This document shows, piece by piece, positions 47,680-47,716 of a DNA stretch of 64,000 nt. A model generated the notes under the pieces. It was given only the letters and a program-made list of their open reading frames with translations, had not been told where the DNA came from and searched no databases. Origin of the DNA: Patescibacteria group bacterium (GTDB lineage: Bacteria > Patescibacteriota > Kazan-3B-28 > UBA10110); NCBI GenBank assembly GCA_041659905.1, contig JBAZXK010000002.1, positions 201,832 to 265,831 on the forward strand, written 5' to 3'. The translations under genes and the position numbers were made by a program. Within the stretch, counting starts at the first letter, position 1; the number at the start of each line of letters is the position of its first letter.

Positions 47680-47716
47680 GTCTTCGCTCCCCTTGGGAGC
47701 TACGCCTGGCTCTGCT
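47680..47716 (+). other. Conserved tRNA 3' trailer motif (hairpin + TACGCCTGGCT), copy 1
   Basis: agtcttcgctccccttgggagctacgcctggctctgc, homologous to the sequence following tRNA-Gly at 53510-53548. Confidence 0.5.

Follow-up and report, generated by a model that had tools for sequence, protein, structure and literature searches.

A structured element at the 3'-ends of tRNA and tmRNA genes, observed in a patescibacterial contig and probably an insertion element associated with a GIY-YIG nuclease gene

Free-standing GIY-YIG homing endonuclease genes are exemplified by those of the T4 Seg proteins, among which SegB is encoded in the T4 tRNA cluster, while I-TevI is intron-encoded. Non-autonomous hairpin repeats include miniature inverted-repeat transposable elements (MITEs), palindrome-associated transposable elements (PATEs), repetitive extragenic palindromic (REP) sequences and REPINs with their REP-associated tyrosine transposases (RAYTs), and the small dispersed repeats of Nostoc. 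Integrase-borne islands in the genes of tRNAs and transfer-messenger RNA (tmRNA), reportedly described by Williams in 2002, are said to possess att repeats reaching from the T-loop to the 3'-end. SLX1 is a structure-specific endonuclease cutting branched and stem-loop DNA, and we know of no activity, substrate or genomic-context role shown for the bacterial UPF0213-type proteins of 80 amino acids (aa). In gut phages, theta ribozymes, which are minimal ribozymes of the hepatitis delta virus (HDV) type, adjoin tRNA 3'-ends and were proposed to free 3'-end formation from host RNases; the CCA is encoded in only 4.5% of the tRNAs linked to them (PMC10879173). Here we describe a structured element, named E, which directly follows two tRNA genes in a stretch of 64,000 nucleotides (nt) from a Patescibacteria group bacterium of the lineage UBA10110 (contig JBAZXK010000002.1, positions 201,832 to 265,831), referred to as the window. 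With a probability of roughly two in three, the copies in the window are nuclease-gene-less copies of an insertion element which is sited after the discriminator base of tRNA or tmRNA genes, in the following t(m)RNA genes, and which in its complete form carries a GIY-YIG gene. E is characterized by a conserved structure with covariation, an exact junction with the t(m)RNA, flanking repeats, serial insertion, differences in occupancy between orthologous sites, and linkage to the nuclease gene.

ARAGORN predicted 7 tRNA genes in the window. At the 3'-ends of tRNA-Arg(CCT) and tRNA-Gly(CCC), the pattern CAGTCTTCGC-N(13/14)-TACGCCTGGCT was found at 47678-47711 (+) and 53548-53514 (-), 5.8 kb apart and in inverted orientation. 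The 2 occurrences compare with 0.00 expected from 100 dinucleotide shuffles, and support the near-identity of the two trailers which had been noticed in a sequence-only reading of this DNA. Because of the tRNA boundaries given by ARAGORN, the leading CA of the motif corresponds to the last two bases of the encoded CCA. The hairpin inside the motif (P2) differs between the copies by one compensatory pair, C-G versus U-A, and by the loop. The letters given for the hairpins in the earlier reading were slightly mistranscribed. The block shared by both copies reaches a second small hairpin of the form TGGC-loop-GCYA and ends at 47717 (Arg) and 53508 (Gly). A scan with R1, the covariance model of E, recovered only the Arg and Gly copies in the window, in agreement with the reported absence of the motif behind the other five tRNAs. 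Other trailers of the window bear different conserved modules. The window is syntenic with the Patescibacteria metagenome-assembled genome (MAG) L015 (UBA10110), with 73% identity over 555 nt.

A scan of one genome per species for the exact pattern resulted in 34 loci (loci collected are denoted by L-numbers), of which 33 were genuine. L011 from Actinomycetota was taken as a chance match because of its GC-rich surroundings and a G instead of a C in front of the motif. The motif directly followed a tRNA gene, of many isotypes, or a tmRNA gene in 24 out of 33 loci, as expected for the tRNA-linked repeat which the sequence-only reading had listed among the possible roles. The suspicion of a merely local duplication without further occurrences was refuted by the same 33 matches. 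Carriers of exact matches were Patescibacteria, including Saccharibacteria and Kazan, Dependentiae/Babeliales, and unclassified MAGs. Another 17 matches were derived from metagenomes, and overall 47 copies were supported by the model. Frequently, E constitutes the internal spacer between tRNAs of one cluster. The exact motif was not found in viral contigs. In Rfam 15, the element regions matched no family other than tRNA and tmRNA, either at the gathering threshold or at an E-value of up to 10. No published description of E was found in a search which included the literal sequences and left most subscription journals outside, and a 2026 survey of Patescibacteria tRNA genes mentions neither trailers nor CCA. 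E represents an uncurated element that has probably not been described previously.

The architecture of E was derived from an alignment of 18 copies (A1); the copies collected measure about 90-190 nt. C75 and A76 of the CCA and 8 nt of the trailer form the 5'-strand of a helix, P1, which pairs with a downstream strand and UG. P2 directly follows the P1 5'-strand and is succeeded by the junction UACGCC and by the hairpin P3, (C)UGGC-loop-GCCA(G). Both hairpins are enclosed by P1, and an A-rich spacer of 5-150 nt separates P3 from the P1 3'-strand. In most copies this strand is present as GCGAAGACTG, the reverse complement of CAGTCTTCGC, and is followed at once by the hairpin P4, YCCNNC-GUAGC...GCGAAG-NN(Y)GGR, with a 3x3 internal loop GUA/GAA. 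The sequence-only reading had recognized the tRNA-proximal module and overlooked the long-range helix with the CCA and P4, as well as the flanking duplications of tRNA ends and the GIY-YIG link described below.

In A1, 95.3% of the cells were paired, compared with 32-42% in slid controls, and 10 pairs were changed on both sides. A second alignment (A2) comprised the 47 matches with an E-value below 1e-5 and showed 94.6% paired cells (slid controls 34-42.5%) and 16 pairs with 125 cells changed on both sides, a result reached by 0 out of 500 shuffles; as these sequences were aligned to R1, A2 is a model-fitted alignment biased towards the structure of the model. The two P1 helices (1-2) were 97.9-98.5% paired over the 47 copies, and at +1, +2, and +5 both partners of the pair had changed. 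At +1 to +3, the triplets GUC, ACC, UAC, GCC, GGC, CGC, UCC, and UGC were observed, each with a matching 3'-strand, and every variant of this strand was followed by the UG pairing with CA of the CCA. In the 46 copies paired at +1, this base was G in 34, C in 6, A in 4, and U in 2 cases. Both-side changes affected 5 of the 6 pairs of P2. The P3 stem was nearly invariant, with a loop variable in length and sequence. E therefore combines conserved secondary structure with covariation in independent sequences, the characteristics of a structured RNA family. Minimum free energy (MFE) folding recovered P1, P2, and P4 in L033 (z = -3.7) and P1 in the Gly copy of the window (z = -3.0). The Arg copy possesses neither the P1 3'-strand nor P4, and a CCAAT-type hairpin is located downstream at 47724-37. 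In its MFE fold CCAG pairs with CUGG around P2, although not significantly (z = -1.28).

Two alternative pairings were considered and rejected. For a second long-range helix, GGCUUCGCC:GCGAAGC, in analogy to P2 of HDV, the variants did not covary, and the segment fits better to the P3 hairpin with its variable loop. For pairing of the CCA strand with the P4 3'-strand, complementarity at the CCA was not maintained. Since the 3'-strands of P4 and P1 resemble each other, we regard the two hairpins as being of common ancestry. Nested P4 modules, as present in the Gly copy, were also found in L010, L020, L022, and L034. P4-like hairpins of about 32 nt were furthermore observed as separate insertions, in L012 (around 1190-1290, -) in the T-loop of a duplicated 3'-part of tRNA-Ala, and in L063 (1289-1448) in the P3 loop of an E copy. 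On the basis of these two cases, the hairpin module may move on its own.

Out of the 47 copies, 37 start no more than 1 nt away from C74 of a tRNA prediction, with 22 anticodon species represented, or of a tmRNA (5 cases). The remaining 10 also start with CCA. Among these, 3 follow fragments of t(m)RNA 3'-ends, 2 are cut by contig ends, and 1 follows an uncalled tRNA-like 3'-end; the others are true orphans located away from tRNAs, with the copy in L020 lying antisense to the neighboring genes. Direct repeats of the host 3'-end flank the insert in four loci, as is characteristic of integrase islands. These comprise 18 nt of the tmRNA in L033, 19 nt of tRNA-Glu in L021, 20 nt of the tmRNA in L054, and 14 nt of tRNA-Gly in L047. 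The flanking repeats span the host t(m)RNA from the T-loop to N73/CCA. A third partial repeat further downstream in L054 indicates stacked insertions, and t(m)RNA 3'-end fragments precede older copies in L026, L024, L047, and L033. The repeat in L047 ends at the discriminator base, and its second copy is followed by TGTATAAA and not by CCA. The simplest reading is that the insert itself begins with CCA, which explains both the CCA start of the orphans and the CA within P1. In L019 (3300-3498), an E copy of the ACC variant follows a T-arm, an acceptor 3'-strand and CCA, with no gene called by ARAGORN. Intron-containing tRNAs have been reported for Patescibacteria in the 2026 survey, and the gene upstream of this copy may be a tmRNA or an intron-containing tRNA.

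Orthologous tRNA clusters differ in their occupancy. In L037, E is located after Leu(AAG), Gly(GCC), and Leu(UAA), in L022 only after Cys, and L037 also differs from L001 and L004. E follows 2 out of 7 tRNAs in the window and 3 out of 7 in L037. Different trailers were also observed at an orthologous tRNA-Asp. In the window (46150-46194, -), a bulged hairpin starting from C75 (CA..UG) is followed by a CUGCA..UGCAG hairpin, and in L015 (1393-1436) the 5'-module of E is squeezed against a convergent stop codon.

During a test of pairing between the post-P4 sequence and tRNA leaders, L018 and L033 were found to share a coding sequence after E. This open reading frame (ORF) encodes a stand-alone GIY-YIG domain of 80 aa (Pfam PF01541, 1.5e-18). 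A tblastn search located it immediately behind E, in the same orientation, in L033, L018, L043, L034, L038, and, frameshifted, L009. A protein search returned 255 relatives, the named sources of which include Patescibacteria, Hydrogenedentes, Desulfobacteraceae, Pseudomonadota, and Opitutae. The genomic context was looked up for 8 relatives selected solely by long contigs or a named source, and in 8 out of 8 cases the gene was situated just after a tRNA or tmRNA and was accompanied by a significant R1 match, in some cases in the order smpB-tmRNA-E-GIY. Across phyla the nuclease is about 55-60% identical. In several loci its start codon is positioned 9-13 nt after P4 and has no Shine-Dalgarno sequence. 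The closest solved relatives are the UPF0213 proteins BH0048 and EF2693 and SLX1 (E-values of 2.6e-5, 1.5e-3, and 0.03). The nuclease was not found in plasmid or phage records. The ORF with intact catalytic motifs next to a conserved target gene, as known for homing cassettes, was thus present at 6 E-centered loci and in all 8 look-ups, and presence/absence polymorphism at orthologous sites, likewise typical of such cassettes, was displayed by L037 versus L022/L001/L004 and by the window tRNA-Asp versus L015. Most E copies have no nuclease gene. Loss of the ORF is itself polymorphic, as L002 retains E and the sequence following the ORF in L018, without the ORF. In L055 (861-1500), at least 5 tandem E units are located between the tmRNA and the GIY-YIG gene; three R1 matches start 238-239 nt apart, and the later units begin with UAACUUCGCC and not with CCACGCUUCGCC. 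Table 1 lists the features of both window copies. The 9-nt repeat CCGATTCTG behind the Gly copy may be a decayed flanking duplication.

Table 1. Features of the two E copies and their host tRNA genes in the window
Feature	Position	Strand	Basis and remarks
Host gene tRNA-Arg(CCT)	47605..47679	+	ARAGORN; Rfam tRNA 62.5 bits; encoded CCA 47677-47679
Arg copy of E, 5'-module only	47677..47717	+	Sequence; partial R1 match 47681-47741, 26 bits, model positions 5-64
Arg copy, CCA	47677-79	+	
Arg copy, P1 5'-strand	47678-87	+	
Arg copy, P2 hairpin GCTCCC-CTT-GGGAGC	47686-47700	+	
Arg copy, junction TACGCC	47701-06	+	
Arg copy, P3 TGGC-TCT-GCTA	47707-17	+	
Host gene tRNA-Gly(CCC)	53547..53620	-	ARAGORN; Rfam tRNA 58.7 bits; encoded CCA 53549-53547
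Gly copy of E, full length, no nuclease gene	53425..53549	-	R1 73.1 bits, E-value 2.2e-11, model positions 1-98
Gly copy, P1 5'-strand CAGTCTTCGC (C75, A76 + 8 nt)	53539..53548	-	Pairs with 53493-53484
Gly copy, P2 hairpin GCTTCC-TTAC-GGAAGC	53525..53540	-	Sequence and covariation
Gly copy, junction TACGCC (53524-19) and P3 hairpin TGGC-TTC-GCCA (53518-08)	53508..53524	-	Sequence and covariation
Gly copy, A/T-rich spacer (53507-494) and P1 3'-strand GCGAAGACTG (53493-484)	53484..53507	-	
Gly copy, P4	53425..53483	-	Outer helix CCCTGC (53483-78) pairs with GCATGGG(C) (53432-25)
Second P4-like hairpin TCCGGC..GACGGA nested in Gly P4	53470-53445	-	
CCGATTCTG, 9-nt repeat of the tRNA-Gly T-loop region (53568-53560)	53414..53422	-	2 nt past the end of E; p ~0.07, weak

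According to our preferred interpretation, E would be placed directly after the discriminator base of a t(m)RNA gene and bring its own CCA. The complete element would carry the 80-aa GIY-YIG gene of the UPF0213/SLX1 kind on the same strand, most copies would have lost this gene, and some would retain only the 5'-module. The nuclease, acting in cis or, for gene-less copies, in trans, would drive insertion into, or homing to, the ends of t(m)RNA genes, and it may act on the E hairpins as structured DNA. The duplications of 14-20 nt would be compatible with staggered cleavage, opposite the T-loop on the one side and behind N73 on the other. An att-like mechanism would also fit them, yet no integrase is present and a single attP could not serve 22 tRNAs. 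If E provides the CCA and is part of the tRNA transcript, it must also fold in a way that permits release of the correct tRNA 3'-end. The tRNAs and tmRNA linked to E presumably function, which requires cleavage of the transcript at A76 or close to it. Possible cuts would be located after A76 and, with a 2-nt stagger, after UG at the P1/P4 junction. The offset of 2 bp between the end of P1 and A76 would match the stagger of RNase III, by geometry only. The role as a processing signal listed in the sequence-only reading seems possible.

A number of points weigh against insertion as the origin of E. Clear flanking repeats were recognized in only 4 of about 30 copies tested, being absent or decayed in most others, and the Gly copy of the window shows only the weak 9-nt repeat (p ~0.07). 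The smpB-tmRNA-E-GIY loci from MAGs of Desulfobacterota and Pseudomonadota showed no flanking repeat, and this arrangement could be inherited vertically. To our knowledge, no characterized mechanism accounts for tRNA-specific repeats of 14-20 nt, and stand-alone GIY-YIG domains are not known as transposases. Neither window copy is accompanied by a nuclease gene, and the GIY-YIG genes of the window belong to other arrangements. In the helices, G-U occupies 19 cells and A-C 12, which is indecisive between folding of the RNA or sense strand and duplex or cruciform DNA. Among the copies of a genome, loops and spacers vary and stems covary, indicating that these copies are old and under structural constraint. 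They look like old constrained copies and not like a recent burst, which would be explained by a function of the RNA at its site no less well than by mobility.

This constraint keeps alive the alternative that E is a host-beneficial, cis-acting module of pre-tRNA maturation, a "CCA clamp" in which the trailer is paired with CA of the tRNA and from which a double-strand- or structure-specific RNase frees the exact CCA end. Such a module would matter in reduced genomes with few exonucleases, and the nuclease gene would merely be prone to reside in trailers of this kind. In favor of this alternative, P1 invariably begins at C75 and terminates with UG, with P4 following directly, and even copies restricted to the 5'-module can still pair CCAG with CUGG. 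E often spaces tRNAs which must function and also follows the tmRNA, the orthologous loci L007 and L017 maintain P4 by compensatory changes, and the copies of a genome behave as a constrained RNA family. We nevertheless consider this alternative unlikely. Only a minority of the tRNAs of a genome carry E, orthologous clusters differ in occupancy, orphan copies lie away from tRNAs and, as in L020, antisense to neighbors, flanking duplications and stacked insertions show arrival by insertion, and the linkage of nuclease and E in 8 out of 8 cases is hard to call a coincidence.

It is improbable that the E RNA serves as a partner of the nuclease, either as an RNA antitoxin or regulator resembling type III toxin-antitoxin systems or as a 5'-leader or stabilizer of the mRNA encoding the nuclease. 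In all cases, the nuclease ORF lies behind E in the same orientation, frequently at a short distance and with no Shine-Dalgarno sequence in between, and the tandem units of L055 are situated in front of the gene. However, most copies lack the gene, GIY-YIG enzymes are DNA nucleases, and neither the fixed CCA junction nor the flanking tRNA repeats would be explained.

Even less probable is a self-cleaving ribozyme cutting after A76 with a function like that of theta ribozymes. The exact junction with the tRNA 3'-end, conserved unpaired nucleotides (UACGCC and the GUA/GAA loop) in a structured RNA, and the phage precedent (PMC10879173) speak for it. On the other hand, the scissile position would lie within a fully paired helix, 8-10 bp from the conserved junction, half of the fold is missing in 5'-only copies, and no ribozyme family of Rfam was matched even at an E-value of up to 10. 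Searches with cmscan for hatchet, pistol, twister, twister-sister, hammerhead, and hairpin ribozymes at E-value limits of 1-10 returned only tRNA and tmRNA. An HDV-like ribozyme was rejected, as no model matched, the order P1-[P2]-J-[P3]-spacer-P1'-[P4] differs from the nested double pseudoknot P1-P2-P3-P1'-P4-P2', no conserved strand follows P4, and all four bases occur at +1 instead of the required G. Finally, practically no probability remains for a merely local duplication, for similarity by chance or for intrinsic termination: the two copies are close together and inverted, but dozens of copies exist in other phyla, shuffles yielded no matches, and the termination signal suggested in the sequence-only reading is not supported, with 0 terminator-like sites in 53300-53700 and 47550-47900 and no U-tract after P4 in the copies read.

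Further readings of the motif were tried and set aside. No sigma-70 promoter was found at either copy, and a sigma-54-like reading of TGGC was dismissed by inspection owing to wrong spacing. RNase P substrate mimicry was likewise rejected by inspection, no NCCA being present after P1 or P4. A context of the cyanobacterial highly iterated palindrome HIP1 was not supported, with one GCGATCGC in the window equaling the chance expectation. A processing stalk of leader and trailer as in rRNA was discarded on the basis of duplex energies of -9.19 kcal/mol within and -9.13 kcal/mol across loci. A phage or plasmid origin does not agree with the cellular genes encoded in the window (RNase Y, MnmA, glycosyltransferases) and with the absence of the motif from viral contigs and of the nuclease from phage and plasmid records.

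Other GIY-YIG genes and tRNA trailers of the window also displayed conserved sequences. An ORF of 84 aa (56651-56397, -) with 41% identity to the E-linked GIY-YIG family is located directly upstream of tRNA-Pro(AGG) and overlaps it. A 10-nt direct repeat, CGGGGTGTAG, encloses this ORF, with one copy at 56699-56690 and the other in the tRNA-Pro 5'-end (56411-56402), and a nearby hairpin, TTCTGCTGTACAGCAGAA at 56689-56672, is of a type recurring in L037 trailers. This region (56397-56699) resembles a cassette with a nuclease gene that has entered the tRNA gene behind position 10. A more distant GIY-YIG-like ORF at 31871-32068 (-) shares 39% identity over 67 aa with the former; upstream of it, up to 32200, short blocks common to L017 and L030 and the P4-like CCCGTCCGTAG were observed. 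The trailer of tRNA-Pro(AGG) (56217-56334, -; TCGTCGCAGTGGAC...GCTCCTCTCCAAATTACAAACAGC) is 80% identical to that of tRNA-Gly(UCC) in L024 (3658-3775) and partly recurs in L021, so that the conserved families of tRNA trailers number two with this one. Behind tRNA-Pro(CGG), the trailer (47867-48000, +) begins with a 19-bp hairpin starting from C75 (CA:UG), which is followed by GATTCGAACCATGGGAAAGGGGTCGGGAAAACGGGAGTTTTCCCGCAGTGGAGGCA. Closely similar blocks are present in L054, between the tmRNA and the 20-nt repeat of its end, and in L024; probably, t(m)RNA 3'-ends have here received insertions of a third kind. A non-coding block of about 260 nt occurs in two copies of about 65% identity at 15021-15284 (+) and 54915-55179 (+), the second lying, on the other strand, in the extended trailer of tRNA-Thr(CGU). 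It starts with a hairpin and TTAGGGGAGGTGGGAGTATAT, short pieces of it are found in L003, L012, L017, L019, and L030, and it has no Rfam match. The tRNA-Pro with anticodon AGG (A34; 56335-56411, -) is uncommon for bacteria. Except for Asp(GUC), the anticodons of the 7 window tRNAs are rare or start with C or A (CCU, CGG, CGA, CCC, CGU, AGG).

If our interpretation holds, E would constitute an uncurated structured motif which ranges over Patescibacteria, Dependentiae, Desulfobacterota, Verrucomicrobiota, and Hydrogenedentes and should be masked or annotated in analyses of tRNA flanks. A genomic role and a testable nucleic-acid partner would then be at hand for one family of UPF0213-type GIY-YIG proteins; in the sources searched, no assigned role was met for stand-alone proteins of this type. 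t(m)RNA genes of any isoacceptor would be targeted in a new way, with nucleotide precision and without an integrase. This also raises the concrete question how exact CCA ends are produced when the trailer base-pairs with the CCA. We can only tentatively propose, with considerable doubt, that E and its GIY-YIG gene form a new class of selfish element in which an SLX1-like nuclease, a replacement CCA and an RNA fold releasing an intact host tRNA are combined for use at any t(m)RNA gene. Such an element would be a parasite of t(m)RNA transcription units, entering them immediately behind the discriminator base. The nuclease would in this case recognize universal features of t(m)RNA genes together with the E hairpins, giving rise to duplications of 14-20 nt from the T-loop to the 3'-end, and the RNA fold would be the 3'-terminal counterpart of self-splicing in introns and inteins.

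Each of the systems described so far has at least one defining feature which is lacking here. Among RNAs, theta ribozymes are the closest precedent by function, and E resembles them as a structured RNA abutting the 3'-ends of many different tRNAs. It differs in its fold, has no HDV match in Rfam and no sign of a catalytic core, and is linked to a nuclease gene and to tRNAs carrying the CCA. Theta ribozymes belong to phages, whereas E is absent from viral contigs and its nuclease from phage records. The sequence match of the nuclease to SLX1 agrees with a hairpin-rich element, to which the substrate range of SLX1 would be suited, but the likeness to UPF0213 and SLX1 is restricted to the catalytic core. 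With GIY-YIG homing genes, the E cassette has in common a small, selfish-looking gene of patchy distribution beside conserved genes. In contrast to these, the E protein consists of the 80-aa catalytic domain only, without a DNA-binding domain, and its gene is always preceded by the structured element. Homing does not result in 3'-end duplications of the target, which are found at E insertions.

Like the non-autonomous hairpin repeats, E comprises many gene-less short hairpin units and rarer copies beside a nuclease gene, its P4-like hairpins are nested and dispersed (L010, L012, L020, L022, L063), and a GTAG is located next to the palindrome in P4. Unlike them, it is strictly specific for t(m)RNA ends, is not associated with a Y1/HUH or DDE transposase, and has an internal inverted repeat (P1) and long, variable flanking repeats. 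An assignment to PATEs of the IS200/IS605 type or to REP/RAYT was therefore rejected, with GIY-YIG (PF01541) as the partner and flanking duplications present; the only constant bases that might serve as the fixed tetra- or pentanucleotide target upstream of IS200/IS605-type elements are CCA, which according to L047 belong to E itself. A MITE, which would have inverted repeats at both extremities and a short target duplication of fixed length, was likewise rejected, as P1 is internal with P4 outside and the duplications measure 14-20 nt with variable length. Integrase islands share with E the insertion at the t(m)RNA 3'-end restoring the gene, repeats of its last 14-20 nt, and tandem arrays at one gene, seen for E in L054 and L047. 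E cassettes, however, do not exceed about 0.1-0.4 kb, and no ORF surpassing the 80-aa GIY-YIG gene in size is present in those read. The occurrence of E at 22 or more tRNAs, each with its own matching repeat, implies that a fixed attP cannot be the source, and an integrase-mediated island was rejected, since the inserts between the repeats hold at most the GIY-YIG ORF and 22 tRNA species as well as tmRNA are targeted. We regard E as related to two known kinds of element, insertions targeting t(m)RNA genes and selfish GIY-YIG cassettes.

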